Below are positions 15,871 to 55,163 of a stretch of DNA of 64,000 nt, in pieces. The translations under genes were made by a program, and so were the position numbers. The notes below the pieces were generated by a model that saw only the letters and a list, made by a program, of their open reading frames with translations, had not been told where the DNA came from and did not search any database. Position 1 is the first letter of the stretch, and each line of letters begins with the position of its first letter. Source of the DNA: Limnochordia bacterium. Lineage in GTDB: Bacteria; Bacillota; Limnochordia; DTU087; JAAYGB01. The stretch is from NCBI GenBank assembly GCA_041687495.1, contig JAWLBR010000002.1:11349-75348 (forward strand), in the 5' to 3' direction.

Positions 15871-18198
15871 CTATAGTTCTACCCCGAGCCACCAGCCCGT
15901 GGGATCGTCGCCGTCGGGGAATCCTCTTCCCCATGAGTGGCCCAGCGCAATGGCCGCTCCTGGCGTGATCGAGTAACGCCCTTTGATTCCGGTTATCGTC
16001 TGGGCAATGGAACCGCTTTCTGAGTCAACTCCAGATTTTTGCTTGTAGTGCGCTGACAAGCGAACGCGATCTGATAGATCCTTATGGGCCGCAAGTCCAA
16101 CCGTGGTTGAAGTCTCTGGTCCCGGTCCATATTTCCGTTCATAGGAGGGTGCCAGTGATACCAAACGGACAAGCTCAAGCTGAGCTCCAAGAGTATAGTA
16201 TTTGGCGGTGTCCTGCCCAAGCCACTCCCTGCCGGTGCTTCCCGTTATCTGAGACAGATACACCGAAGCGTCGGGGGAAATCTGTCGCGGCTGCCATAGC
16301 CCCTTGAGCTCCAGAATCCGCTCACCTGGGGTTTGACTGAGGTTGACTTGGGTTGTCAGAGTTGGCGATAGTTGCCAGGATAGCTGGGAGTCCCCCTGCC
16401 ATTCCCACTGACCAGACCACTGCAGGGCAGCACTGCTGAGTAAAGATAAGCGGTTTGATGGCTTATACTCCAGGGAGGCCCCGATACTGCTGCCAAGCTG
16501 AGACTGTGCCCAAGCTGTCCCTCGGTTCTGGTACACGCTGCCATCTAGGCTCAGCCGATACCTGTCACCACTGTGGGCTAAGCTAAGGAGCAAGGAGTCC
16601 TTGCGATCAACCAAAACACTCTCGCCCGGAACTCTGCTGTCTTCACGCCTCACGCCCAAGAAAATCTGATTTCCTGCCCCAATATGGCGAGAGACATCGG
16701 CTCCGTAGAGGCGGGTGTCTAGCCTGTCGTAGGTGGCGTAGCCAATTTGGGTGTGCTCTTTGCTGCCCCAGCCGTAGGTGAAGCTCTGATTCCAGGAGCC
16801 GCTAGAGGTGACAGTGACCCAGTTGTCCCGGCTACGTTCGCCTAGATACCCCGGATCCTTCGGGGCCCAGTTAGACGTTCGATTCTGGCCGACCCCTATA
16901 CTCCAAGCATTGCCCAAGTCCTTTACCAAGGAGATCCTCGCAGACCCAGACTGCAGTCTGCCGGCGTATTCTGCAAAGCTGTCATCTGTGGTGAGACTGT
17001 ATCCCGCACTAAGTTCAGCACGGTTCCAGCGTTTGAGGCCATCTAGGGACCAACCGCGCTCTCCGGGACTGTACTCAGAGCCGGGAAAGTCAGGGAACGC
17101 TGTTCCATACCGAAATGCCTGTCCAGATAAGCGGACAGAGTCACTTAACCATGTTCCAATCTGAGCTGACCAGGCGGTGGAGTCGGGGTGTTTTTGCTCT
17201 AGAAACAGCGGCATAGCGGCTTCCAGCTGCACCCGCTGTCTTCCGTCATCCCAGCCTCCCGAAATTGTGGCTACCTGCTTAGGAGAGCGGGGATCTGTGT
17301 CACTTAGGTATCCCAGCGCTCCGTTGTAGGGGCCACTTTGCACTGCAAGCTCACCACCGCTGACCCGGTAACCGCCACCTTCCTGCGTCTGATACTCATA
17401 GGTGACAAATAGGCGCCCTTCGTTGCTGCCTACTCTGGCGGCGGGGGACTCAGCCAAGGACAGAGCCCCACTAACGTAGTCCAGCGTGTAGTCTGGAAAG
17501 AACATATCGATGGTCTGGCTGGGATCACCCGGCGGATGGACAGTAATCTGAACCATTTCACTTCCGGGAACGATGTTTTCCTCGGCCAACCGATAGTGGA
17601 GTTTTCCGCTGTTGATAGAAAAGGACTCGGCATTTGGCTTTTGGTGTACAATGCCCGAGAATCCGCTCAGCTGGACATTACCATACTTACCCGATGCGTG
17701 TAGTCCCGCCACAGGCCGGCTGTGTGAGAACAGGCTGGATGGTGTTGTGCTCCATCTGGTCTGCCACGCCGCTGCCCCCGAGGGAGCATTAGCCGAACCC
17801 AGCCAGGAACCAGCAGGCTGCGCCGTGTCGTCTTTCCCCTTAGAGATGTTCTGCTCTTTGAACCATGCTCGCCAGCTATCGGTATCGCTGTCGCCGTCGG
17901 CTTTTGCCCATCCAGAGTCGTACTCCAGGCGAAATTCGACACCGGGAGCAGTATCCCCAGAGAGGATAAACCCATAGTCATCGCCAGCTGTGTGCGAGGT
18001 TTTCCATACTTCGGCTTGGTCTAGACTTAAGCTGACCGCTGGTGCCGCTGGCAAACCCTCGACAGGAGCCATTGGCGTGTTCAGACCGCCTGCAGCCGTA
18101 ACTGGCGTCGATACCGCCAGCGATAGCAGGAGGGCCGCTGTCGAAAGCCTTAACCTGCCCTTGGGCTTGCTTCCCAAGCTTCCTTTCCATATATTCAT
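15871..18198 (-). CDS. Large secreted beta-rich protein, putative outer-membrane beta-barrel
   Basis: The ATG at 18198 is preceded by an AAGGGGA RBS. It has a signal peptide (KPKGRLRLSTAALLLSLAVSTPVTAAG). It is rich in W, Y, G, S and D, with many alternating hydrophobic/polar strand-like segments through to the C-terminus. Confidence 0.5.
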   Translation of the reverse strand: MNIWKGSLGSKPKGRLRLSTAALLLSLAVSTPVTAAGGLNTPMAPVEGLPAAPAVSLSLDQAEVWKTSHTAGDDYGFILSGDTAPGVEFRLEYDSGWAKADGDSDTDSWRAWFKEQNISKGKDDTAQPAGSWLGSANAPSGAAAWQTRWSTTPSSLFSHSRPVAGLHASGKYGNVQLSGFSGIVHQKPNAESFSINSGKLHYRLAEENIVPGSEMVQITVHPPGDPSQTIDMFFPDYTLDYVSGALSLAESPAARVGSNEGRLFVTYEYQTQEGGGYRVSGGELAVQSGPYNGALGYLSDTDPRSPKQVATISGGWDDGRQRVQLEAAMPLFLEQKHPDSTAWSAQIGTWLSDSVRLSGQAFRYGTAFPDFPGSEYSPGERGWSLDGLKRWNRAELSAGYSLTTDDSFAEYAGRLQSGSARISLVKDLGNAWSIGVGQNRTSNWAPKDPGYLGERSRDNWVTVTSSGSWNQSFTYGWGSKEHTQIGYATYDRLDTRLYGADVSRHIGAGNQIFLGVRREDSRVPGESVLVDRKDSLLLSLAHSGDRYRLSLDGSVYQNRGTAWAQSQLGSSIGASLEYKPSNRLSLLSSAALQWSGQWEWQGDSQLSWQLSPTLTTQVNLSQTPGERILELKGLWQPRQISPDASVYLSQITGSTGREWLGQDTAKYYTLGAQLELVRLVSLAPSYERKYGPGPETSTTVGLAAHKDLSDRVRLSAHYKQKSGVDSESGSIAQTITGIKGRYSITPGAAIALGHSWGRGFPDGDDPTGWWLGVEL

Positions 18199-18601
18199 TG
18201 GCAAATCCCCTTGCTGTTTTGGTGTAGTTAATGCTGCGTTTGGTAGCTAGTAGAAGTGCTAGTTCTGTCCTAAATACACTGGTAGCAGCGTCAAATGGAG
18301 TTGCTGTGTATCGATACAAAGGGACATTATCATATGAATTCAGCATATTCCAAAAGAAAGGCGACATCAAGGGCTAGTCCTTGCCAGTTGGTTGAAAGCA
18401 AGCTTTGCCAATGCACTAGAAGATTCCCGCTATATCAGTATCTGGGGGATAATGCTAGGTTTTGGGGGTTGTTCCAAGTTTGCAGTCTCCAGTAAAATGA
18501 TAAGTGATTAGACCACACTTTGACACAGAAGGGGTGTTTGAACCAGAAACAATGTAAGGAAAAAAACTAGAGGGGGATTCTTTCTGAAGAAGCTAACCTA
18601 T

Positions 18602-43174: not shown

Positions 43175-44668
43175 TTGAACGTACTCATCGGAAAGTTCAA
43201 AGAAGTATTGTTTGCCGTACTTCCGACCACCGTTATTGTCTTGGTTTTGCATTTTACCCTTACTCCTCTTGACGCCCCCATGCTGGTTCGTTTCCTTGTC
43301 GGCGCAGTCCTGATTGTCCTCGGTCTTTCTGTGTTCCTATTTGGAGTGGACCTTGGCATTAGCCCCATTGGTCACTTGATGGGGGGAACACTGACCAAGA
43401 GCAACAAACTCTGGGTCGTGGTGGCCGGTGGGTTGATCCTGGGATTTTTCATTTCGATAGCGGAACCAGATCTGCATATTTTGGCTGGGCAAGTTGATTT
43501 TGTCACCTCCGGAGTGATTTCCAAGCTTAGCATCGTTGCGGTTGTGTCTGTTGGCATCGCCGTCATGCTCGCCTTGGGACTGGTTCGGATCGTGTACAAC
43601 ATTCCCCTGTACAAAATACTGACGGTACTGTATGCCATCGTATTTGCGTTAGGCGTATTCACTTCACCAGAGTTTCTGGCGATCTCCCTCGATGCTTCTG
43701 GAGCTACAACCGGGGCAATGACAGTGCCGTTCATTTTGGCGCTGGCTCTTGGTGTCACAGCACTCAAGAAGGATCCTAAGGCTTTAGAAAAAGACAGCTT
43801 CGGTTTGGTTGCAATTGTCTCCGCGGGTGCTATAATATCAGTTATGTTAATGAGTATTCTCTCGGGTGTAGACAGAGATTTTGCTGGGCCTGCATCCGAG
43901 GTGGCTTATGCAGCATCGATTTTTGCACCCTTCGGACAGAAGCTGCCCACAGTCGTTGAAGAAGTGTTTGTCGCACTCATCCCCATCATTGCAGCATTCC
44001 TCATCCTGCAATATGTATCGTTTAGGCTACCGGGGAGAAGCGTTAGGAAAATCCTAACGGGCCTAGTGTATACGTTCACAGGGTTGGTGCTGTTCTTGGT
44101 GGGCGTAAACGCAGGCTTCATGGATGTCGGAACTTTTGTAGGATATCGTCTCGCATCGCTGGACAACAAAGCTTTGGTAGTAGGCCTCGGTTTTCTCATA
44201 GGTCTGGTAACAATACTGGCAGAGCCGGCTGTTTACGTTTTGACGACACAGATAGAAAACGTTACCAGTGGATACGTGAGGAGGAAGATTGTCCTTCTGG
44301 CACTGTCCTTGGGAGTTGGCATTGCCGTGGCACTATCGATGCTTAGGATCATTGTTCCTGGAATTCAGCTATGGCACTATGTCCTTCCTGGTTATGTCCT
44401 AGCGATCACGATGACCTACTTTGCGCCAAAGCTCTTTGTCGGCATGGCCTTTGATTCAGGTGGAGTTGCTTCTGGTCCCATGACTGCCACTTTTGTGTTA
44501 GCCTTTGCTCAAGGCGTCGCACAGGCCATTGAAGGGGCAAACGTTGTGGTCGACGGGTTTGGCGTCATTGCCATGGTGGCGATGACACCATTGATCACGC
44601 TGCAGATTTTGGGGCTGATTTTCAAAGCAAAGTCTGGAAAAGAGGGAGTGGCAGCAGATGGACAATAG
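43175..44668 (+). CDS. DUF1538-family integral membrane protein, internally duplicated (two DUF1538 halves fused)
   Basis: 497 aa. TTG start after AGGAAGTGAG. The N-terminal half (KEVLFAVLPTTVIVLVLHF...) is echoed by the second half (VEEVFVALIPIIAAFLILQYV...). Polytopic. Confidence 0.55.
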   Translation: MNVLIGKFKEVLFAVLPTTVIVLVLHFTLTPLDAPMLVRFLVGAVLIVLGLSVFLFGVDLGISPIGHLMGGTLTKSNKLWVVVAGGLILGFFISIAEPDLHILAGQVDFVTSGVISKLSIVAVVSVGIAVMLALGLVRIVYNIPLYKILTVLYAIVFALGVFTSPEFLAISLDASGATTGAMTVPFILALALGVTALKKDPKALEKDSFGLVAIVSAGAIISVMLMSILSGVDRDFAGPASEVAYAASIFAPFGQKLPTVVEEVFVALIPIIAAFLILQYVSFRLPGRSVRKILTGLVYTFTGLVLFLVGVNAGFMDVGTFVGYRLASLDNKALVVGLGFLIGLVTILAEPAVYVLTTQIENVTSGYVRRKIVLLALSLGVGIAVALSMLRIIVPGIQLWHYVLPGYVLAITMTYFAPKLFVGMAFDSGGVASGPMTATFVLAFAQGVAQAIEGANVVVDGFGVIAMVAMTPLITLQILGLIFKAKSGKEGVAADGQ

Positions 44669-45323
44669 CCCTGACCAGAAACAGTTTGAGCTGATGTGCG
44701 TAGTGGTGGATTTTGGCTCCGGAAGTAAGGTAATGAAAATCGCAAGGGAACACGGAGTGACAGGAGGAACCATCTGCTTAGGGTTGGGGACTATTCGCAG
44801 CTGGCTGTTAGAGCTGCTTGCCATAACAGAGGTTAGGAAAGAAATTGTCCTCATGGTTGCCGAGAAAGTGGTGGCGTACAACACTCTTGAGCAGCTGAAT
44901 AAAGATCTGAAGTTCCACAAACGTGGTCATGGAATAGCGTTCAGTACATCTGTGAAGAGTTTCATCGGGGCTGTCGATGGCAGTAGCAGTGCTTCCGAGG
45001 AAAGCAGAGGTGAGGAGAACCCAATGCACAGCGTTGTTTTTGTAGTAGTTGATAAAGGTAAAGGTGAAGAAGTTATTGACGCGGCCCGGAAAGCCGGTGC
45101 CAGAGGCGGTACCGTGATTAATGCCAGAGGCTCGGGTATCCACGAAGCCACTACGCTGTTTTCAATGGCCATAGAGCCCGAAAAGGAAATCGTGATGGTT
45201 ATCGCGAAAAATGAGCTGATTGAGGGTATCGTCACCTCGGTGCGGGAGAAGTTACGGATTGATGAGCCGGGCAACGGTATCATGTTCGTTCAGGATATCA
45301 ATAAGACATACGGGCTGTACTAG
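44658..45323 (+). CDS. Tandem P-II-like (GlnB-superfamily) signalling protein, two P-II-like domains
   Basis: Repeats ELMCVVVDFGSGSKVMKIAREHGVTGGTICLGLG and SVVFVVVDKGKGEEVIDAARKAGARGGTVINARGSG. Overlaps the DUF1538 gene by 11 nt. Confidence 0.65.
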   Translation: MDNSPDQKQFELMCVVVDFGSGSKVMKIAREHGVTGGTICLGLGTIRSWLLELLAITEVRKEIVLMVAEKVVAYNTLEQLNKDLKFHKRGHGIAFSTSVKSFIGAVDGSSSASEESRGEENPMHSVVFVVVDKGKGEEVIDAARKAGARGGTVINARGSGIHEATTLFSMAIEPEKEIVMVIAKNELIEGIVTSVREKLRIDEPGNGIMFVQDINKTYGLY

Positions 45324-45448
45324 CCAGAAGGAGATAGGGTGTTTTACAGGGGCTGACCACGCGGTTGGCCTCTGTTTTATTTTTAGGGGAGCTTATCCAG
45401 CATATGTAGACGAGTGCAGCATAGACATATGGAGAGGTTGACAACCTA

Positions 45449-46063
45449 GTGGGTTGTCTAAAAACTAAGTCCGGCCGAAGTGAGGGATGCCTAGTGCGCA
45501 GCAAGTTGGTAATGCAATGGGTTGTTGTTCTGCTGTTGTTTCTTGGCTTTACGGTGTCGGGCCACGCTGGGGTAACGGTTACTTTGGATCCACTCGGCTC
45601 CAGCTGGACGACGGGGATCGTTGTCGACAGTTTCTATGAACTTCAGGACGTTTATGTGAGCGATGTTCTGTCTTTCTCTGTAGCAGACGATGAGTACATA
45701 CCGGGTGATTACTACACCGTCACGGTGAGTGTGGACCCCGAACCAAGCACCTGGAGTAAAGCACTGATGGATCCATCCAACGTTGCCATGCACACCCAAG
45801 ATTATGAGAAAGCGTTTGACATCTTTCTGAAGGGGCCAGATAACCAGTGGTCTAATCTAGGCCACTCGGGTTCTGTGCAGGAGAACTCACCGCTGCCCCA
45901 TCTCTACGACTTGCGGCTGGTCTTGGTTCTAGTGGATCAGGAAAACTCGGTCATGGGGGAAGATACGGCGGGGGAGCCTGGGAAGCGTCGTTTTGCTGAG
46001 CTGCCTAGCGGACATTATGAGACCGACGTAGTCGTTACAGTAGCCCAGGGTTACAACCCCTAA
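45449..46063 (+). CDS. Secreted hypothetical protein, paralogue 1 of a pair (candidate surface/fibre subunit)
   Basis: GTG at 45449 (or ATG at 45512), with a signal peptide. The C-terminal block GEPGKRRFAELPSGHYETDVVVTVAQGYNP is shared with the next gene. Confidence 0.55.
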   Translation: MGCLKTKSGRSEGCLVRSKLVMQWVVVLLLFLGFTVSGHAGVTVTLDPLGSSWTTGIVVDSFYELQDVYVSDVLSFSVADDEYIPGDYYTVTVSVDPEPSTWSKALMDPSNVAMHTQDYEKAFDIFLKGPDNQWSNLGHSGSVQENSPLPHLYDLRLVLVLVDQENSVMGEDTAGEPGKRRFAELPSGHYETDVVVTVAQGYNP

Positions 46064-46303
46064 AGAGTCATCTCCATTTTTTTCTAGGATTTTGGTGTCA
46101 CCAACTAGCCGAAGCGACCATAGGATAGCGTGAAAGGAGGGAGTGGTCACCTAGGTTGGTTTTCTCAGGCGTCTACAAGTGCAGATACCAGAGAACAGGC
46201 CGAAGTAATCTCCAAATGTAATCACCTCGGCCGCAGACAAGGCAAAGCCCTATGGCGCATCACGATCCTAACTTAAGAAAATGGAGAACGGAGGAATTGA
46301 TGG

Positions 46304-46975
46304 ATGAAAAGGCTATCCGTTGTCGGCTTAGTTGTGGCTTTCTGCATGGTGTTTTCGGTGGCAGCGTTCGCTGCTGATGATACGGGAGCAGCTACCTTGA
46401 CGACCGAAGTTCTCAGCCCCTACGTAGAGTGGGTATGGGACGACGCTAACGGCTACAATCTAATCAACGCTTCTTTAGGACTGGACAATGTATATCTGTT
46501 CTCTCAAGAGTTCAAGGTCCGGTCTACCACTTCCTATAGCATTTCCGCCGAGATAACGGCTGATTGGCCGGGCGTAGTGATGGATGACTCCAATGCAGCT
46601 GTGGCCCACAGAGACGAACATGATGCGGCTTTTGATATCGCTGCAACATTCCGTAACTACGAGAAGTGGCTGCAGTTTGACAAACCAATTGTCAACAAGT
46701 GGACCGGTTGGATCAACAACGCTCGCTCGCATTATGGGTTCCTCGCCCGCAGTATCAATACTCTGGGTACCCCAGACAATGAGGTCGTCCATTCCTTGGG
46801 CGTGGCTCTAGTACTTGTAGACGACGTGGCCTATAAGGGAGTTAGCACCGGAGCTCCTGGCGACGATTCGACACCTACAGCCGGTACTATGGGCAAGCGG
46901 CGTTTTGCAGAGTTGCCTGCCGGCACCTACACAGCCGATGTAGTGGTAACTGTTAAGCAAAACCCGATGTATTAA
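46304..46975 (+). CDS. Secreted hypothetical protein, paralogue 2
   Basis: RBS AACGGAGGAA, signal peptide MKRLSVVGLVVAFCMVFSVAAFA. It shares three blocks with paralogue 1 (AFDI..., LVLVD..., GKRRFAELPAGTYTADVVVTVKQNP). Confidence 0.6.
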   Translation: MKRLSVVGLVVAFCMVFSVAAFAADDTGAATLTTEVLSPYVEWVWDDANGYNLINASLGLDNVYLFSQEFKVRSTTSYSISAEITADWPGVVMDDSNAAVAHRDEHDAAFDIAATFRNYEKWLQFDKPIVNKWTGWINNARSHYGFLARSINTLGTPDNEVVHSLGVALVLVDDVAYKGVSTGAPGDDSTPTAGTMGKRRFAELPAGTYTADVVVTVKQNPMY

Positions 46976-47167
46976 TTGGTCTAGGAAGCATTTGACAGAA
47001 GCAAAGCACTGCCCTTAAAAGGCAGACAGCTGATTTATATATAGTTTAAGACGGATTGGGGAGATGCTTCTTGTCTCCCCAGTCCGACTCTTGGATTTGT
47101 TTTTTTGTCCGGGGCAAGTCGGTCAGCATCGGGAGAGTCCTTCCCGAATTCACTGATGGGAGAGGAT

Positions 47168-48010
47168 ATGATGAAACAACACAAGTTGGGCGTAGTGATG
47201 GCATGCATATTGGTAGCCTTTTGCACATTGCATGTTGCTGCCTCTGCACCGTTTGCCGTTGATCAACAAATCGTTGAGCACAACATGGATGCCGGAGGTA
47301 GAGTGTCGGGGTCTATCGTCGCGACTAATCCTGGAGACCAACCGGTGAAGATTAATATCGTTCCAGTGGACTATGTTCGCAACGCCAAAGGCGATACTGT
47401 TAAGGCAACCCAGGAGCAGCTGGAGCGGTCGTTGTTCCCCTACATAGCTCTGTCGGCAAGTTCGCTGACGCTTGAACCTAAGAGCTCTGCCAAACTGGAC
47501 TATATCATTGACATGCCCGAAACGGCAGAGGGAAGCTATTGGTTGGCGGTGTACTTTGAGCCTGAAACCGGGACAGTGGTTCAGGGCGGAGCTTTGGAAG
47601 GGCGCCCAGAGGTAACTTTCAACTTCAACCTGAAAATTCGCTATGAGGTCATGTTTCTGGTCACCATCAACGGAACGGACAACCCCAACGGGGCGGTAAC
47701 GGGAATGCGCCAGATCTCCCAGTCCGACGGATTGGCCTTTGAGGTGGATTTTCGCAACACGGGCAACGTCTACTATGGGGCCGGTGGTCGCGTTGAGATC
47801 CGCGATCAAACGGGAGCGACGGTGGCGGAACTACCACTTGAGCGGACCTTTGCTCTGCCCAACCAGTCGTATACCTTTGAGGTGAGCGACGGGTCGCTGC
47901 AGCTGCCTCCCGGTGACTATATTGCCCTTGCGGTAGTGGATTTCGGAGGCGACAAGTTGGTAGCCGGTCAACTCCGGTTTGCGATCCATGGGAGGGAGGA
48001 AGCAAGGTGA
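47168..48010 (+). CDS. Secreted two-domain beta-sandwich protein (PapD-like chaperone-like or DUF916/DUF3324-like)
   Basis: ATGATG start after GGGAGAGGA, with a signal peptide. Two beta-rich domains each carry a V.V.N.G..P-type strand pattern. The stop overlaps the GTG of the next gene (GTGA). Confidence 0.45.
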   Translation: MMKQHKLGVVMACILVAFCTLHVAASAPFAVDQQIVEHNMDAGGRVSGSIVATNPGDQPVKINIVPVDYVRNAKGDTVKATQEQLERSLFPYIALSASSLTLEPKSSAKLDYIIDMPETAEGSYWLAVYFEPETGTVVQGGALEGRPEVTFNFNLKIRYEVMFLVTINGTDNPNGAVTGMRQISQSDGLAFEVDFRNTGNVYYGAGGRVEIRDQTGATVAELPLERTFALPNQSYTFEVSDGSLQLPPGDYIALAVVDFGGDKLVAGQLRFAIHGREEAR

Positions 48011-50715
48011 GCAGAGCACGGCTTGGAATCGTTGCCGCCGTTTTACTTCTGAGCAGTCTGATGTGTACCACATCTTACGGAGCAAGCTCGGACGGGTTGG
48101 TGAAGTTGGCGTTGGTGGGCGACACCACCGTACAGCCGGGCTCGTTTGTCACCTTAGTAGCGCACCTTGAGGGCGCCTCCTTTACACAGCAGGTTTACCG
48201 TACGACAGTGGTCGTACCTGACGGGTGGACTGTGCTGCCGCTGCCTGATCAGACCGCAGTCAGCTCCAGTCAGCCTGAGTTGTTGTTTGTAACTCTAGGC
48301 GTGCCGAGTACGGCGCCGGCTGGGGTGCACTCGGTGACCATAGACCTAAACACGCCGGATGGCAGTCTTGTGCAGACGGCCAACATTGATATTGAGGTCT
48401 TGCGCAGGCGGTCTATTACCATAAGCCAAAAATCAGTACCTCGGCTGTATCCGGGTGAGACGGGTACGGTGGTTTTGGTTGTGCATAACTCGGGTAACAG
48501 TCGTGAAGTGATCTCGGGCGATATTGAGCCGGACTCTGGCTGGGGGGTCAGCCCGACTAGATTTGCTAGCCAGTTGGAGCCAGGCGATACTACCTCCATC
48601 GAGCTGGCAATATCGGTCCCGACCAAGGTCGGTGAAGGGGTGCGACAGCGCGCCGAAGTTACGGTGGGAACGGCAGATAAGGATCTGCGTGAGGTGTTTG
48701 GGGTTCGGACCCACATCCTCCCACCTTTCCCTGGGTCAGTTCCGCCCTTAAGACCGGATGCACTAAACGCGTTAGTAACTGTTAGCTCAGGCGATGTGCT
48801 CGAAGACATCGTGCGTCCGGCCCTCTGGTTTTCCGCTTACGGAACCGTTGGAGATCGGCATGAACTGGATCTAAGAGCTAAAGTCGATACTGATGCAAAT
48901 GGGAGCACGGATATTGACCATGTAGGATTTGACTATGCACGGGCCCCTTGGTCGGTGAGCTTTGACTGGAACCCCGGTGCCTACTCCGACCGGTATAGAT
49001 ATCTAGTAGGGTATGATCGAGATCCGTGGTCACTGGCTGCCGGAGATATTGACCTAGAGCTAAGCCCCCTCGTTACCGCTAGGGGCAGAGGAGCCAGTGC
49101 TCGGTACTTCGCTCGAAAAAGCGGAATGGACTACGGAGCATTCTGGCTGGATGACAATGCCGGTGGTACCGTAGGCAAAGAGTGGACATCGGGCAACCTG
49201 AGGTTAACCGTACTCAACCGCCCCGAACTTGGAGGCAGTCTGTTTAGTATCAGCGCTGAACAGCAGTTGACTAAGCGCCTGCGAGTCGATGGTGAACACG
49301 TCAGCGTCGATGGTGACAATGCCTGGGCTGTGGGCGCCAACTGGGCTGGCGATAGGATGGACGTAGAGGGTCGGTACTATTGGTATGGCACGGATTACCC
49401 TGAAGCAGAAGCCGGTGATGAGGGCTATGAGCTAACTGCATCGGGCAGCCTCGGCTCCACGTCGATGACTGTGCGGGTGGAAGACATGCGGGATAGCGTT
49501 GTCTACGACCCGAACGCTCGGATTGTGGCTCGAAGGTCCATTTCTGCCTGGACAGATACACCGATTGGGACCAATCGCTTGAACACCTATGTAAATCGTG
49601 ACGATGCAGAGAGCGTATATCTGCCGGCGGGTACTTCACCTGTTGATAGTGAGTCTTGGTCGGCAGCAGCCAGTTTCCGCAGCCCGCAAGAGAACTGGTT
49701 CTGGGAAGTGGGCGGATCGTTGGACTCATACGAGAACAAGGTGACGGATGAGGGATGGGCGGAGGTGTACCTTGGCCCGACTATTGGTCGCAGCTGGGAT
49801 AGAACCCGTGTTTCCGGTGGCTTGGGACTTGTCGGATCAGGAGATACGCTGGATGAAGCCATAGATGAGGCGAGATTGGGGCCTCGGGCTGACTTGTACT
49901 ATCGTCCATATCTTTCTTGGTTTGACTATGTAGGCGTCTCGTATCGAGGCGGGGAGAATCCTGATACTAGGCTGAGGGCAGGACTGGGCTTTGGGAAACC
50001 CGATTTTCGGGTTACCGTTACTGGCCAAGGCAGGTTCTACAAGGGCGAAGAGGATTGGCGCCTGATGCTTGGGCTCAGCAAGCGGTTTGCTCTACCGGTG
50101 CCAGGTGCATACTCGAAGGGGCAAATTCGAGGTCGCGTTTTCACCGGTGAAGGCGACGCTGTTCGTGGCCTGGGCAAGATTGTCTTGGCCATTGATCGCA
50201 CTCGGGTATCAACCGATGCTGATGGTTACTTCGTGTTCCCGCCCATGCCAGAGGGCGAGTACCTAGTCACGTTCGATGGTCTTCCAGTTACCTATCAGCC
50301 GCTGGTCGAGGTGCCCATGCTGGTCAGTGTCCAGCATGGCAGGATCAGCGATGTGGAGATCCCGGTTAGGTCAGCGGCGCAGGTCGTCGGGAGAGTCTAC
50401 CTGACCGACCCAGACCAAAATGAACGCAGTATTCTCCGGCCTGCTGGGGTCAAGGGAATTGCTGTTCAGCTCTGGCAGGAAAACGAGCTCGTGGACACTG
50501 CCATCTCTGATGACAACGGGTATTATCAATTGTCAGGGATGCAGCCTGGGCAGTATCGGGTGACTGTTGATTCGACCAGCCTCGGGGCAAGGTATGAACT
50601 TGTGACCGATGAAACTACGGACATCGAAGTCGACGCAACCAGCAGCCATCGGGTGAATTTCGGGGTTGGGCACAAGACACTAGACATTGAAATCACCTTC
50701 GAGGGTGAAAGCTAA
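48007..50715 (+). CDS. Large secreted multi-domain protein: N-terminal Ig-like (CARDB/NEW3-like) repeats, central Trp/Tyr/Asp-rich beta-barrel-like region, two C-terminal carboxypeptidase-regulatory-like (transthyretin-fold) domains
   Basis: GTG after GGAGGGAGG, with a signal peptide. N-terminal repeats carry the PGETGTVVLVVHNSGNS pattern. The central region has alternating amphipathic strands. C-terminal domains carry GRVFTGEGDAVRGLGKIVLAI...DADGYFVF and GRVYLTDPDQ...DDNGYYQLSGMQPGQYRVTV. Confidence 0.55.
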   Translation: MSRARLGIVAAVLLLSSLMCTTSYGASSDGLVKLALVGDTTVQPGSFVTLVAHLEGASFTQQVYRTTVVVPDGWTVLPLPDQTAVSSSQPELLFVTLGVPSTAPAGVHSVTIDLNTPDGSLVQTANIDIEVLRRRSITISQKSVPRLYPGETGTVVLVVHNSGNSREVISGDIEPDSGWGVSPTRFASQLEPGDTTSIELAISVPTKVGEGVRQRAEVTVGTADKDLREVFGVRTHILPPFPGSVPPLRPDALNALVTVSSGDVLEDIVRPALWFSAYGTVGDRHELDLRAKVDTDANGSTDIDHVGFDYARAPWSVSFDWNPGAYSDRYRYLVGYDRDPWSLAAGDIDLELSPLVTARGRGASARYFARKSGMDYGAFWLDDNAGGTVGKEWTSGNLRLTVLNRPELGGSLFSISAEQQLTKRLRVDGEHVSVDGDNAWAVGANWAGDRMDVEGRYYWYGTDYPEAEAGDEGYELTASGSLGSTSMTVRVEDMRDSVVYDPNARIVARRSISAWTDTPIGTNRLNTYVNRDDAESVYLPAGTSPVDSESWSAAASFRSPQENWFWEVGGSLDSYENKVTDEGWAEVYLGPTIGRSWDRTRVSGGLGLVGSGDTLDEAIDEARLGPRADLYYRPYLSWFDYVGVSYRGGENPDTRLRAGLGFGKPDFRVTVTGQGRFYKGEEDWRLMLGLSKRFALPVPGAYSKGQIRGRVFTGEGDAVRGLGKIVLAIDRTRVSTDADGYFVFPPMPEGEYLVTFDGLPVTYQPLVEVPMLVSVQHGRISDVEIPVRSAAQVVGRVYLTDPDQNERSILRPAGVKGIAVQLWQENELVDTAISDDNGYYQLSGMQPGQYRVTVDSTSLGARYELVTDETTDIEVDATSSHRVNFGVGHKTLDIEITFEGES

Positions 50716-51514: not shown

Positions 51515-51867
51515 TTGAGTGTGCTGTTAAGGCACTGGCTTGGCCAGTGCCTTAACTATGTCGTCTGCACTAAAACGCCAATTCGCGCAAAAATGCTGCC
51601 CTTTGGGCCAAGCCCAGGCAAATGCCTGGGTCCTTTCGCGCCTTCATACCTATGACATCCCGCGAAACTTCACATCTACCCGCCTCATATTACAGAACAT
51701 GTATAATTAAGGGAAAAATGCCAATAATAAGAGAGGCTGAATGAGCCCTCTGAGTAGATTCTGGTATAGGGATGATGAGACAGGCGAAGTAGGGGGGCTT
51801 GTTTCGCTTAGCCCGAAAGAGCTTTACGGCAGAGGTATCAATACTATGACTAGTGGGGGTAAGCAGA

Positions 51868-52701
51868 GTGAAAAAGTTTGGCGTCTTGGCTGTTGTGTGT
51901 GCCCTGTTGCTTGCGACTTCGGTGGTGTCCGCTGAGGGGATTACCCTTAAGGGTGGAGCCTGGTTTGTGGACGTTGATGGGTCTCTAGGAGCTGATGCGA
52001 ATATCTCCGCGTGGGAACCCGCGAGTCTTGATGCTACTTTCGGTGAAGATGATACTAACTACTACATAGCTGGTAGCGGAGATTTTGGGAAGATTGGCGT
52101 AACTGGCTTTTATGGCACTGCCAGTGCCTCTAATCCGAAGGCTATGCTTGACATTTCGGTCTCTGACACACCATTCGAGTCTTTGAGTGGTACCTTAGAT
52201 GGTGCGTCACTGCAGGCAGATGCCTTCTATGGTTTGGCTGGGTGGAATCTTGGGGCAATCTCAGTTGGTGGAGGTTGGGCCTACATGGACCACTTGCTCA
52301 CAGTACCGCTGTTTGATGATGATACCGTCAAAGTGAAGGGCGAGGCTAGAGGCGATGGGTTTGCTGTCGGGGCTTTTGGGTCCTATCCACTAGCCGAAAA
52401 GGTCGACGTCTTTGGCACCCTCTACTATGTCCCTTGGGCCGACATCATGGCGAAGGCATCAGTGGCAGGCGAAGGGTTGGATATCAGCCTTGCGCAAGAC
52501 TTCGACGGAAGTATGTGGGGACTGGACGTTGGAGTATCCTACAGCTTTACTGAGACCTTTGGGATCGAGGCTGGCTATCGAAATTTCGAGCTAAATGCAG
52601 ATCAGAAGACGCTACTAAGCATCCCCGGTCTTATCGAGATAGCCGGCGATGGTTCCACTGCAATGGATGGTTTCTATGTAGGGGCTAAGGTGGTTTTCTA
52701 G
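51868..52701 (+). CDS. Putative outer-membrane beta-barrel protein (porin/OmpW-like size class)
   Basis: GTG at 51868 after GGGGGTAAG. Signal peptide KKFGVLAVVCALLLATSVVSAEG, alternating-residue strands throughout, and a C-terminal aromatic residue (…YVGAKVVF). Confidence 0.5.
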   Translation: MKKFGVLAVVCALLLATSVVSAEGITLKGGAWFVDVDGSLGADANISAWEPASLDATFGEDDTNYYIAGSGDFGKIGVTGFYGTASASNPKAMLDISVSDTPFESLSGTLDGASLQADAFYGLAGWNLGAISVGGGWAYMDHLLTVPLFDDDTVKVKGEARGDGFAVGAFGSYPLAEKVDVFGTLYYVPWADIMAKASVAGEGLDISLAQDFDGSMWGLDVGVSYSFTETFGIEAGYRNFELNADQKTLLSIPGLIEIAGDGSTAMDGFYVGAKVVF

Positions 52702-52904: not shown

Positions 52905-54275
52905 ATGGTTGGTGTTACAGTGGTAAAGCTCCCAATAAGAACAACGTCATCCAAACCCTACGATCGCGGGGAGCACGGGGTAGCGTTTGTCCTGGTCATG
53001 GTCCTAATTCCAGTTGTCCTTATCTATGGAGGTGCGCTCCTGCAGGGTGTTCTTCATGACGCCAGGAGCGTTGACTTGGAGCAAAAGCGGTTGAAGGCCT
53101 ATTACCTTGCCAGGTCCGGAGCTGTTGCTGTGTTACAGTGGGCTCAGAGCAACTCCGTCACGGATCTTCTAGGACAGCAATCAGCGCCAGTCAGTTTGGG
53201 GGAAGGCGCTTTCTCGGTCGAAGTCATTGAGGATGCAGATGGGTCGATTATTATCAAATCCACTGGGACTGTCGATGGGGTGTCTCAGGTAGTTAAGGTT
53301 CGGCCCCAACCACAGGAGGTAGCCTTTGACAGCGCGCTTTTTTCGTCTGGAGATATCACTCTTAAGGGCAGCGCCGGTATCACAGGTCAAGTTATGACTA
53401 ATTCATCGGAGCCCGGAAGCATCAGTATTAGTGGCTCGGGAGGTATCAGGATCGACGGCAATGTTTACATCGGACCACAAGGGAATCCGTTGGAAGTGGT
53501 TGTCGGTTCCAACAATCTTAACCCTTTTGCCGTTGTGAGTGGCGAAATCAGCAACTTGCAGGAAGCCCGCAATTATCCGACGCCACTCCTCCCGGATTTT
53601 CCCAACCTACCTCAGGTTCGAGATGGTGGTCCCATCAGCGGTGGAGTGCTGAAAGTAGAAGGCGGCAAATACAAGACCTATACCTTAACAGAGGGCGGCT
53701 ACTTCCAGTCCATAGAGGTTAAGGGGAATGGTGCTTTGTACATCAACGTCGGATCGGCTGACATGCAAATCCGAACACGCAATTTAGATATTAGTCAAGG
53801 TCACATCATTGTTCAGGGCAGTGGCAACCTGCAAATCTACGTCGAAGATTCCTTTAGTATCGGTGGAAGTAGTACCGTTAATGCCGGCGGTTCTCTTGAC
53901 GACGTGACAGTTTTTCACAGAGGAAGCGAGACTATTGATATTGGAGGCGCGGTGGTGTTCAAGGGATCACTGGTGTCTGAGTCAGCCAATGTAGAGCTTG
54001 GCGGTAGTGGAGCGGTAACCGGTCACTTGATTACAGGCGGCTCACAGGTTAGTGTCCAGGGCAGTGCCGATGCTGAGACCAGGCTGCTTTATGCTCCCAA
54101 CGCTGACATTAGTGTGAAGGGTAGTGGATACATCCGCGGGGCAGTAATCGGCAGGACCATCGATGTTTCGGGCAGTGCGCACGTGACCTTTGTGGATGTT
54201 GATCTGGACTCAATCCCAGTCAATCTTTCCGGTGCAGGAGGGTCGGCAGGTGCGTCCAAACCTATGTGGCTTTAG
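52905..54275 (+). CDS. PilX-N-domain-like type IV pilus minor component with Gly/Ser-rich beta-helix-like C-terminal region
   Basis: Hydrophobic N-terminus then LKAYYLARSGAVAV (the PilX_N signature AYYxAEAG-like), followed by a long GS(G)xGxxG repeat region. The start is uncertain (52905 or an internal site). Confidence 0.45.
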   Translation: MVGVTVVKLPIRTTSSKPYDRGEHGVAFVLVMVLIPVVLIYGGALLQGVLHDARSVDLEQKRLKAYYLARSGAVAVLQWAQSNSVTDLLGQQSAPVSLGEGAFSVEVIEDADGSIIIKSTGTVDGVSQVVKVRPQPQEVAFDSALFSSGDITLKGSAGITGQVMTNSSEPGSISISGSGGIRIDGNVYIGPQGNPLEVVVGSNNLNPFAVVSGEISNLQEARNYPTPLLPDFPNLPQVRDGGPISGGVLKVEGGKYKTYTLTEGGYFQSIEVKGNGALYINVGSADMQIRTRNLDISQGHIIVQGSGNLQIYVEDSFSIGGSSTVNAGGSLDDVTVFHRGSETIDIGGAVVFKGSLVSESANVELGGSGAVTGHLITGGSQVSVQGSADAETRLLYAPNADISVKGSGYIRGAVIGRTIDVSGSAHVTFVDVDLDSIPVNLSGAGGSAGASKPMWL

Positions 54276-54653: not shown

Positions 54654-55163
54654 ATGCGCAGATACGTTGGCGACCGCGGCTTTAGCCTAGTGGAATTGAT
54701 GCTGGCATTGTCGCTCTTGGCATTCGTCATTGCCATATCATCTGGATACTACGTTAGGAGCGCGCAAGTATTTCGCGATGCTGATCAACAATCGAGAGTT
54801 CAGGTTGAGGTGACTCGAGCAGTGAGCTTTATCAGCACCGAAGTGAGAAATGCTGTCGAGATTGAAGTGTTGAGTCCAGCTGCTCTTCAAGCTCGGGATC
54901 CGGCAAGTAGTTACATTTTTGTGGATAACGGCGCGTTAAGGCGCTGGAATGCATCTGGAGAGACGATAGTGGCTGAGCACGTAGCAGGTGCCCAATTCGA
55001 GCTGATTTCCCATCGAGAGGCCACGACTCTAGAGTTTACGCTGCAGGTGGGAGGCCGGCTGCGTGAACTGCAGACAAGATCTGAAGTGCTGCTGAACAAT
55101 ATCACAGAGGCTAGTCCAACTCTGAATCCGGAGAGGGTCTTGCGTTACAAGAGGGCAAACTAG
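54654..55163 (+). CDS. Type IV prepilin-like protein (pseudopilin)
   Basis: Leader MRRYVGDRG|FSLVELMLALSLLAFVIAI with Glu at +5. 169 aa. Confidence 0.7.
   Translation: MRRYVGDRGFSLVELMLALSLLAFVIAISSGYYVRSAQVFRDADQQSRVQVEVTRAVSFISTEVRNAVEIEVLSPAALQARDPASSYIFVDNGALRRWNASGETIVAEHVAGAQFELISHREATTLEFTLQVGGRLRELQTRSEVLLNNITEASPTLNPERVLRYKRAN

Follow-up and report, generated by a model that had tools for sequence, protein, structure and literature searches.

Few bacterial machines for surface assembly are understood as well as chaperone-usher pili. Their pilin subunits have an Ig fold that is short of its last strand and carry an N-terminal extension that serves donor-strand exchange, while the pore of the usher is gated by a plug domain of about 85 residues located between strands 6 and 7. 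To our knowledge, every known chaperone-usher class relies on PapD-type chaperones and on ushers of PF00577, the surface appendages of deep-branching diderm Firmicutes are almost unstudied, and there is no experimental demonstration of WxLIP (DUF916 plus DUF3324) acting as an assembly chaperone. The commonest WxL cluster encodes a single WxLIP together with a pair of WxL proteins, and according to AlphaFold predictions a loop of WxLIP turns into a strand and so closes a gap in the beta-sandwich of WxL (PMC10599100). Both WxL and DUF916 have been reported to bind peptidoglycan (PMC10599100, PMC9772566). [quoted passage not shown]

The window, i.e. the whole 64,000-nucleotide stretch of Limnochordia bacterium DNA that was analysed, contains four co-oriented genes, here called A, B, C and D, that make up a conserved four-gene module of double-membraned Firmicutes, which looks self-contained and directed to the cell envelope. 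We estimate a probability of roughly 55% that the module is a new chaperone-usher-like pathway exporting or polymerising the small proteins A and B. The operon logic is that of Fim/Pap and Csu/CupE chaperone-usher systems, namely small secreted subunits, a periplasmic two-Ig-domain protein and a large outer-membrane protein; however, Pfam matches to Usher, PapD_N/PapD_C, Fimbrial and SCPU are all absent, and the hosts are diderm Firmicutes, unlike those of chaperone-usher pathways. With WxL clusters the module shares the layout of one WxLIP-type gene beside two small secreted paralogues, but it has no gene for an LPXTG protein, a frequent WxL-cluster partner, and it encodes a predicted usher-like outer-membrane barrel, which would be impossible in monoderm WxL clusters. 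No published description of such a module was found in the literature.

Structure of the locus

The initial annotation claimed four open reading frames on the + strand, and all are present (Table 1), except that its start for gene A (45449) is an in-frame GTG upstream of a likelier one, the GTG at 45494, which has GAGGGA six bases 5' of it. The proposed translational coupling of C and D is borne out by the overlap of the C stop codon (TGA, 48008-48010) with the GTG of D (48007), and a hydrophobic, signal-peptide-like N-terminus can be recognised by eye on all four proteins, as had been suggested. The description of A and B as separately terminated does not hold: a terminator scan finds no site after either gene beyond shuffle expectation, and RNA folding in the A-B and B-C gaps is no better than in shuffles. 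Each of the four proteins is a singleton cluster. A small OMP-like gene lies at 51853; it is unrelated to the OMP-like gene preceding the module in another contig (L004) and was left out of the module.

Table 1. Coordinates of the module genes, the gaps between them and the domains of protein D.
Feature	Coordinates	Strand	Description
Gene A	45494..46063	+	Subunit-like, 189 aa; ORF; exact match to NCBI gene call
A-B intergenic gap	46064..46303	+	240 nt; convincing intrinsic terminator absent
Gene B	46304..46975	+	Subunit-like, 223 aa; ORF
B-C intergenic gap	46976-47167		192 nt
Gene C	47168..48010	+	Secreted two-Ig-domain protein, 280 aa; ORF
Gene D	48007..50715	+	Usher-like predicted outer-membrane protein, 902 aa; coupled to C through GTGA overlap
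D residues 33-237	48103..48717	+	Two tandem Ig-like (NEW3/CARDB-type) domains
D residues 252-697	48760..50097	+	Putative transmembrane barrel, 28 predicted beta-strands (DSSP of model)
D residues 704-889	50116..50673	+	Two transthyretin-like (CarboxypepD_reg / SdrD_B) domains; Pfam E=1e-13, model

Protein families of the module

The claimed paralogy of A and B is confirmed by BLASTP (E=1e-13; 149 residues align at 34% identity, GKRRFAELP[SA]G.Y..DVVVTV among them). Protein A has the signal peptide MRSKLVMQWVVVLLLFLGFTVSGHA, followed by the alternating strand GVTVTL, and ends in LVLVD...GKRRFAELPSGHYETDVVVTV. In protein B the signal peptide ends at AFA|ADD; the conserved N-terminal strand is TLTTEVLSPYVEW, for which the equivalents in orthologues are FDVKVTNPTIKW, FEIEVTNPYVAW and YEVKVTSPYAEF, and further blocks are VRSTTSYSI, AAFDI, LVLVD and GKRRFAELPAGTYTADVVVTV. 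Alignments of A, B and their relatives show an alternating hydrophobic strand directly after the signal peptide. Together with the C-terminal G.Y...V.VTV strand, this resembles the arrangement of pilins. The orthologues of B are L044_203, L004_186 and L043_213, and the best non-self match of A is L044_188, the first small gene of a Halanaerobacter-type locus; A-type and B-type subunits are conserved separately across lineages. No Pfam or NCBIfam family is found for A or B, nor for any of 27 subunit-like proteins, and judging from these profile scans the two belong to an unannotated family. The AlphaFold model of protein B (pLDDT 48.5, from an alignment of eight rows) is too poor for use, and its Foldseek matches (birnavirus VP2 and Pgp3, TM 0.2-0.3) are regarded as noise.

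Two known families were considered for the subunits. Like WxL proteins, they end in a strand of the form G.Y...[LV].[WVYF].[LV], but A and B have neither WxL motif, with Y.I where distant relatives have W.L, and there is no match to the WxL family (PF13731) for A, B or 23 distant subunit-like proteins. When compared by hhalign with seven proteins from six plasmid WxL clusters (six annotated small WxL proteins and one adjacent unannotated paralogue), only the final strand is aligned (45% probability, 17 columns), and the assignment of A and B as WxL proteins was rejected. The second family is that of the TLP-1 pilins. A union profile of the subunits (A6) searched against PDB at E<=10 retrieves only TLP-1b (E=0.0067) and TLP-1a (E=0.029), both borderline, with an alignment spanning the donor strand at the N-terminus, the strand "V.SS..W.L" and a KxAFD block. 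With profile A5 the values are E=0.09 and 0.68, the narrower profile A8 has no TLP-1 match, and the reciprocal phmmer search from TLP-1 is not significant. The closest cited TLP-1 relative is from Flavobacteriales, whereas the module is found in Firmicutes. The match to the TLP-1 pilins is kept as a lead only.

Profile comparisons identify C as a homologue of WxLIP over its whole mature length, with both domains in order. The C-family profile matches EfmWxLIP1 (PDB 9i1y/9i25) with an hmmsearch E-value of 2.1e-8, query residues 39-287 aligning to chain residues 23-274 across both domains. Alignment of the C family to bona fide WxLIPs by hhalign gives a probability of 98.5% (E=3.9e-15), or 96.7% (E=3.9e-10) when the close relatives of C only are used, covering residues 28-276 of the window protein. 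C alone falls under the Pfam WxLIP threshold (E=0.05), and one relative passes that of WxLIP_PGBD (34.8 bits, cutoff 27.3). The parallel that the initial annotation drew with WxL/DUF916 loci is therefore strengthened, while its statement that no canonical motifs can be recognised is only partly right, since profile methods place C in the WxLIP family. Unlike WxLIP, C lacks the cytoplasmic-membrane anchor, since in place of a C-terminal transmembrane helix there is a polar tail (...RFAIHGREEAR) of 10-15 residues past domain 2, and the four closest relatives end in the same way. C is a putative periplasmic chaperone or adaptor. Unlike the chaperones of chaperone-usher systems, C is not PapD-like at the level of sequence, and its two-Ig-domain layout appears to come via homology to WxLIP: C has no Pfam match to PapD_N or PapD_C, one distant relative matches PapD_N at E=0.048, and the PDB chaperones FaeE and YadV match C only at non-significant E-values of 1.2-1.5.

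For protein D, the layout of Ig-like repeats, a strand-rich centre and two carboxypeptidase-regulatory-like domains agrees with the Pfam matches, which are NEW3 at 149-211 and two CarboxypepD_reg/SdrD_B at 707-884, with none within 250-700; no Pfam family is found in the barrel region across 11 family members. In line with the suspected barrel, the AlphaFold model (pLDDT 90.9) predicts the central region as a run of 28 barrel-type strands with short turns, located between two Ig-like domains and two beta-sandwiches. Short turns alternate with longer loops, the composition is rich in Gly, Asp, Tyr and Trp, and the last barrel strand carries an invariant F694, followed by LPVPGxYSxG, the most conserved motif of the D family. 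The best structural matches are FimD and PapC. According to the model, the architecture is usher-like, with N-terminal domain(s), a large barrel and a transthyretin-like pair where CTD1 and CTD2 sit in ushers, and the fold is similar to that of solved ushers, so that the chaperone-usher parallel of the initial annotation gains model-based support from D. Three features distinguish D from ushers. Its predicted barrel has about 28 strands against 24; it has no plug domain, as inter-strand gaps in residues 252-697 of the model (DSSP string) are at most 11 residues and none could hold a plug-sized insertion; and in place of the usher NTD there are two WxLIP-like Ig domains, which share homology with C's own domain pair. 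Pfam Usher (PF00577) matches neither D (E<=1) nor ten members of its family (E<=0.001).

Conservation of the module and alternative readings

Relatives of D were found through an exhaustive HMMER scan; word-indexed searches with D and B returned the query only, and with C two weak relatives. Within the diderm-Firmicute subfamily (28-33% identity), searching with D yielded only four relatives over the full length, plus some fragments. A check of gene neighbourhoods shows that the module recurs in Halanaerobacter and Limnochordales assemblies with unrelated flanks, and because of this recurrence in other lineages it stands above chance. With S for a small gene, the Halanaerobacter-type contig (L044) has the genes in the order S-S-C-D, the Limnochordales-type contig (L043) in the order S-C-D-S, and L004 in the order S-C-D. 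The diderm context that had been suggested is supported by both genome-level relatives, given that Halanaerobiales and Limnochordia have been described as outer-membrane-bearing Firmicutes (PMC11456536). Among 28 metagenome loci found through C, a D homologue adjoins C in 13. Most of the metagenome C loci with sufficient flanks also have small genes, many with signal-peptide-like N-termini and products ending in PG.Y...V.[VYF]T[VL]. In some clusters of C and small genes no D is within reach (L013, L030/L031).

An alternative that we consider unlikely is that the module encodes a non-polymerising surface complex, a diderm counterpart of the WxL cluster, where D would anchor or export and single-copy A and B would be held by C-like domains as an adhesion or substrate-binding platform. 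The homology of C to WxLIP and the combination of one C with two small paralogues, as in the commonest WxL cluster (PMC10599100), speak for such a complex, as do the dockerin modules in distant C homologues (L006 and L008), which suggest scaffolding of surface complexes; polymerisation, moreover, is something that we infer. Against this, neither A and B nor their relatives match the WxL family beyond the last strand, C has no anchor, and polymer assembly is the better fit for D's usher-like architecture and for the N-terminal strand conserved among the subunits.

It is less probable still that D serves as a channel for solutes or polymers, i.e. a large porin or a pore for uptake or export, whose Ig-like and transthyretin-like domains would bind the substrate while A, B and C would be periplasmic or surface binding proteins for that same substrate and not cargo. 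Ushers outrank transporters among the Foldseek matches of D by 5-9 orders of magnitude in E-value, the model has no candidate transporter plug between the Ig-like pair and the first barrel strand, and the flanking genes vary between lineages and have no metabolic theme. A cytochrome (MtrB-like) reading of D was also rejected, as the CxxCH motif is absent and there is only one Cys.

The weakest alternative, and in our view a very improbable one, is an envelope-architecture complex, where the small proteins and C would bind peptidoglycan and, jointly with D, would tether the outer membrane or set its spacing in Firmicutes lacking a Braun-type lipoprotein: the reported peptidoglycan binding of WxL and DUF916 and the diderm Firmicutes as closest hosts would fit, but Pfam and NCBIfam scans find no SLH, OmpA or LysM domains in any of the four proteins, peptidoglycan binding by WxLIP is itself a prediction, and a core tether should be commoner than singleton clusters and a D subfamily of so few members.

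Proposed assembly pathway and its implications

The proposal that this is a surface-fibre or secretion/assembly locus is favoured by its parallels with both known systems, the conserved neighbourhood, the barrel-type model and the paralogy of A and B, with fibre formation being putative. In the chaperone-usher-like pathway that we favour, A and B would be exported by Sec and bound in the periplasm by the soluble, WxLIP-type C, which by analogy would probably lend a beta-strand to complete their fold. D would be a large outer-membrane barrel, with its WxLIP-like N-terminal pair and transthyretin-like C-terminal pair facing the periplasm, where these domains would receive complexes of C and subunit, and the subunits would pass through the pore. 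They may then be displayed at the surface or joined head-to-tail by the N-terminal strand of the next subunit, in a putative donor-strand exchange. Different roles, e.g. shaft versus tip or anchor, may fall to the two conserved classes of paralogue.

A more far-reaching reading, which is speculative and which we hold to be doubtful, is that the module is an outer-membrane-era relative of the WxL cluster, where a WxLIP-type chaperone and an usher with a WxLIP-like N-terminus assemble donor-strand-exchange fibres of a new pilin family, possibly including TLP-1. On loss of the outer membrane, the usher would have been lost, WxLIP would have gained its anchor, and the subunits would have become the peptidoglycan-bound WxL proteins. 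If true, this would add a new chaperone-usher class and give an evolutionary origin for WxL proteins.

A system that combines an usher-like barrel with a partner of WxLIP type and a new family of subunits would mean that deep-branching diderm Firmicutes built the logic of chaperone-usher systems too, or that this logic diverged there to an unrecognisable degree. For WxLIP, which to date is only predicted to keep WxL proteins at the wall, the module suggests a possible role as a strand-donating chaperone, and the orphan donor-strand-exchange pili from environmental cryo-EM gain a possible machinery for their assembly. The module may also serve as a marker for the diderm-to-monoderm transition, with one family that is accompanied by an outer-membrane barrel in diderms and carries a membrane anchor in monoderms.

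Organisation and conservation of the module

An ORF scan recovers the four co-oriented genes proposed in the initial annotation: two small secreted subunit-like proteins (A and B), a secreted two-Ig-domain protein (C) and a putative usher-like outer-membrane protein (D). The A gene is present, but the start first assigned to it, 45449, is an upstream in-frame GTG; the GTG at 45494, with a GAGGGA ribosome-binding site six bases before it and a 189-aa product identical to the NCBI sequence of A, is favoured. The proposed paralogy of A and B holds (BLASTP E=1e-13, 34% identity over 149 residues, including the near-identical C-terminal stretch GKRRFAELP[SA]G.Y..DVVVTV), as does the coupling of C and D, where the D GTG (48007) is overlapped by the C TGA (48008-48010). 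Read from the sequence, all four products have signal-peptide-like N-termini and none has a lipobox cysteine. The separate terminators suggested after A and B are not supported, since the scan found no terminator-like site there above shuffle expectation, and folding of the A-B (240 nt) and B-C (192 nt) gaps does not surpass that of shuffled sequences; a good terminator-like hairpin occurs in this region only after the conserved-looking DUF1538/P-II-like pair. As this pair upstream and a nitroreductase gene downstream are unrelated housekeeping genes, the module is bounded at approximately 45.4-50.7 kb.

Features in the window and in related metagenome loci (aa, product length)
Feature	Sequence	Coordinates	Strand	Length	Description
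OMP-like ORF of the initial annotation	window	15871-18204	-	777 aa	no Pfam family at E<=1e-5
DUF1538/P-II-like pair	window	43175-45323	+	497 aa, 221 aa	DUF1538 membrane protein overlapping P-II-like-domain protein by 11 bases
Hairpin	window	45346-45375			terminator-like
A	window	45494-46063	+	189 aa	small secreted protein
B	window	46304-46975	+	223 aa	small secreted protein
C	window	47168-48010	+	280 aa	WxLIP homologue
D	window	48007-50715	+	902 aa	usher-like protein
Barrel-like gene	window	51853-52701	+	282 aa	signal-peptide protein 1.1 kb downstream of module, C-terminal ...GAKVVF
DUF7305 gene	window	52905-54275	+	456 aa	hydrophobic GspK/PilX-like N-terminus
Prepilin-like gene	window	54654-55163	+	169 aa	prepilin N-methylation motif
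OMP-like gene	L004	34-744		236 aa	ends GLGFRF, precedes subunit gene
Gene after D	L004	5396-6343		315 aa	weak Peptidase_C39_2/C70 matches
Distant C homologue	L006	2889-4316		475-488 aa (with L008)	C-terminal type I dockerin
Distant C homologue	L008	2913-4379		475-488 aa (with L006)	C-terminal type I dockerin
Metagenome cluster (with L011)	L013	1-7412			two C homologues, at least six small genes

Relatives of D were found by genome scan in one Limnochordales and one Halanaerobacter MAG, both with a C homologue just upstream of D and a truncated subunit gene before C; Limnochordia and Halanaerobiales are deep-branching, outer-membrane-bearing Firmicutes (PMC11456536). Conservation of the neighbourhood is confirmed by whole modules with unrelated flanks on longer contigs. 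With S denoting a small subunit-like gene and numbers the lengths in aa, these run S188-S203-C274-D894 on the Halanaerobacter-type contig L044, S213-C285-D922-S206 on the Limnochordales-type contig L043, S186-C274-D897 after an OMP-like gene on L004, which is the closest full module, and C283-D912-S198 on L005. The 315-aa protein after D in L004 may act as a processing protease.

Scanning metagenomes with the C profile yielded 28 loci, in 13 of which a D homologue adjoins C. Where the flank is long enough, most loci have one or more small genes whose products end in the subunit-type C-terminus, and many of these products begin with a signal-peptide-like sequence; the order is often C-S-D. Several S and two C genes with D absent within reach are seen in L013 and L030/L031; the small genes of the L013/L011 cluster come in two types by sequence, …DWATDIVGAYSI.VTL.ISE and …DIPGTYTTTVTYTI.AP, and no D homologue occurs in the 7.4 kb of L013 examined. 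In L006 and L008, the dockerin-bearing C homologue is followed by a second dockerin protein (~400-450 aa) and then by a D homologue to which a PKD domain is added; these loci are a cohesin-dockerin-linked variant of the system.

The 282-aa protein downstream of the module weakly matches families of outer-membrane beta-barrels (TIGR04219, E=1.5e-6; OMP_b-brl; YfaZ) and is unrelated to the OMP-like gene of L004. The two genes beyond it look like type IV pilus/pseudopilin genes and are missing from related loci, so they probably belong to a separate system.

Protein C, the small proteins and the WxL parallel

Against Pfam, C alone gives only weak matches, including WxLIP_PGBD/DUF916 at E=0.05 (WxLIP, WxL-interacting protein). 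Its relatives match this family repeatedly, one of them above the curated threshold (34.8 vs 27.3 bits; E=1.9e-8), and a C family profile of 25 sequences matches both domains of E. faecium WxLIP1 (PDB 9i1y, 9i25; E=2.1e-8). When aligned by hhalign with the WxLIPs of six annotated plasmid WxL clusters, the C family reaches 98.5% probability (E=3.9e-15, 272 columns) and the five closest C sequences alone 96.7% (E=3.9e-10, C residues 28-276). C therefore carries the DUF916+DUF3324 pair. It stops directly after the second domain in a polar tail, and so is without the transmembrane helix that is a defining feature of WxLIPs (PMC10599100). A relation to PapD-like chaperones is not detectable (E about 1). 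In the protein collection, C (P0003) has the precomputed Pfam accession PF26059.1, which the Pfam scan used here did not report for C even at E<=1; it may be a newer family already covering C.

No Pfam or NCBIfam family was found for A or B, or for 25 related proteins and subunit-like neighbours encoded at other loci. In close relatives, an N-terminal strand (TLTTEVLSPYVEW; B-type [FY].V.V[TL][NS]P...[WF]) comes right after the signal peptide, and the other common blocks are V.S...Y.I.V, AFD[IV], LVLVD and RRF.ELP.G.Y...V.VTV. B clusters with L044_203, L004_186 and L043_213, and A with L044_188; as the two classes are separately conserved, the duplication is older than the split of these lineages. 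Small genes beside C and D in distant loci keep the block order but have W.L where the close group has Y.I, and they end in ...W..D.PG.Y..T.T[YF]T...P; hhalign links them to the close group through the last strand only (76%).

The motif pattern of the distant small proteins resembles WxL domains. Tested against six annotated small WxL proteins and one adjacent unannotated paralogue, the small proteins aligned by hhalign in the final strand only; their assignment as WxL proteins is not supported. The WxL parallel drawn initially gains support from C. With WxL clusters the locus has one true homologue in common, WxLIP, but their defining anchor, WxL motifs and monoderm host are missing. That A to D form a non-polymerising WxL-like surface complex is rather unlikely.

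A union subunit profile matched only TLP-1b (E=0.0067) and TLP-1a (E=0.029) in the PDB, across the N-terminal donor strand, the next strand and the KxAFD block. TLP-1 fibrils are unassigned environmental pili built by donor-strand exchange (PMC11494351). As the match was lost with a narrower subunit profile and the reciprocal search was not significant, it is kept as a lead only. The model of B (eight-sequence alignment) has a pLDDT of 48.5, and its fold matches are noise.

Protein D is usher-like in predicted architecture

Pfam identifies in D a NEW3 Ig-like domain (residues 149-211) and two CarboxypepD_reg/SdrD_B domains (707-884), with no family in residues 250-700. A word-indexed search returned only D itself; HMMER, run exhaustively over 1.84 billion representatives, gave 1,489 matches, 30 of them at E<=1e-30, and among them are four full-length relatives sharing 28-33% identity. 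Both ends, the Ig region at the N-terminus and the C-terminal domain pair, are matched in about 100 proteins of 850-1060 aa; all ten scanned with Pfam share the end domains, some with an added PKD domain, and none has a central Pfam family or an Usher match.

The AlphaFold model of D (101-sequence alignment; pLDDT 90.9, pTM 0.73) has two Ig-like domains at 33-237, 28 beta-strands in 252-697 with all inter-strand gaps at most 11 residues, and two beta-sandwiches at 704-889. Gly, Asp, Tyr and Trp are abundant in the central region, where turns of 2-5 residues alternate with longer loops, and the modelled region fits an outer-membrane barrel; closure and exact strand count are model-based estimates. 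The usher-like plan proposed for D is borne out by Foldseek, in which each of the best eight PDB matches is an usher aligned in full length (FimD 1.9e-15 to 3.5e-12, PapC 9.5e-12; 735-919 columns aligned). TM-scores are low (0.26-0.35), as would be expected if the domains were oriented differently. Judged from the model, D is usher-like in architecture and fold but does not belong to the usher family by sequence. Ushers have a plug, whereas the modelled D has no plug insertion and apparently more strands, so its gating must differ. Among barrel families, BtuB and FecA follow the ushers in Foldseek, with E-values near 1e-6 to 1e-7; that D is a channel unconnected with export of A and B appears improbable.

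A proposed chaperone-usher-like pathway

The simplest model using all parts is a chaperone-usher-like pathway, to which we assign a probability of roughly 0.55. The locus would work as chaperone-usher systems do, although its proteins failed sequence membership as usher, chaperone and pilin alike. To the architecture and homologies demonstrated here, this model would add binding, translocation and polymerisation. A and B would be exported by Sec and bound in the periplasm by soluble C, plausibly via strand insertion, as predicted by AlphaFold for WxLIP-WxL pairs (PMC10599100). The complexes would be taken over by the putatively periplasmic C-like pair and C-terminal domains of D, whose barrel would pass the subunits outward, where they may be displayed or polymerised via their N-terminal strand. 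The idea that the module is instead an envelope tether is the least probable of those weighed.

No description of such a module emerged from full-text searches that covered usher-like systems of diderm Firmicutes and any link of DUF916/DUF3324 to pili or donor strands. In a collection of 15 billion proteins, A to D each form a singleton without a name, and the D homologue of Halanaerobacter is recorded as 'hypothetical protein'. In PDB 9i25, the second 2026 entry, EfmWxLIP1 is chain C, which suggests a solved WxLIP complex, perhaps with WxL partners, whose partner chains would be the proper reference for the subunit fold.
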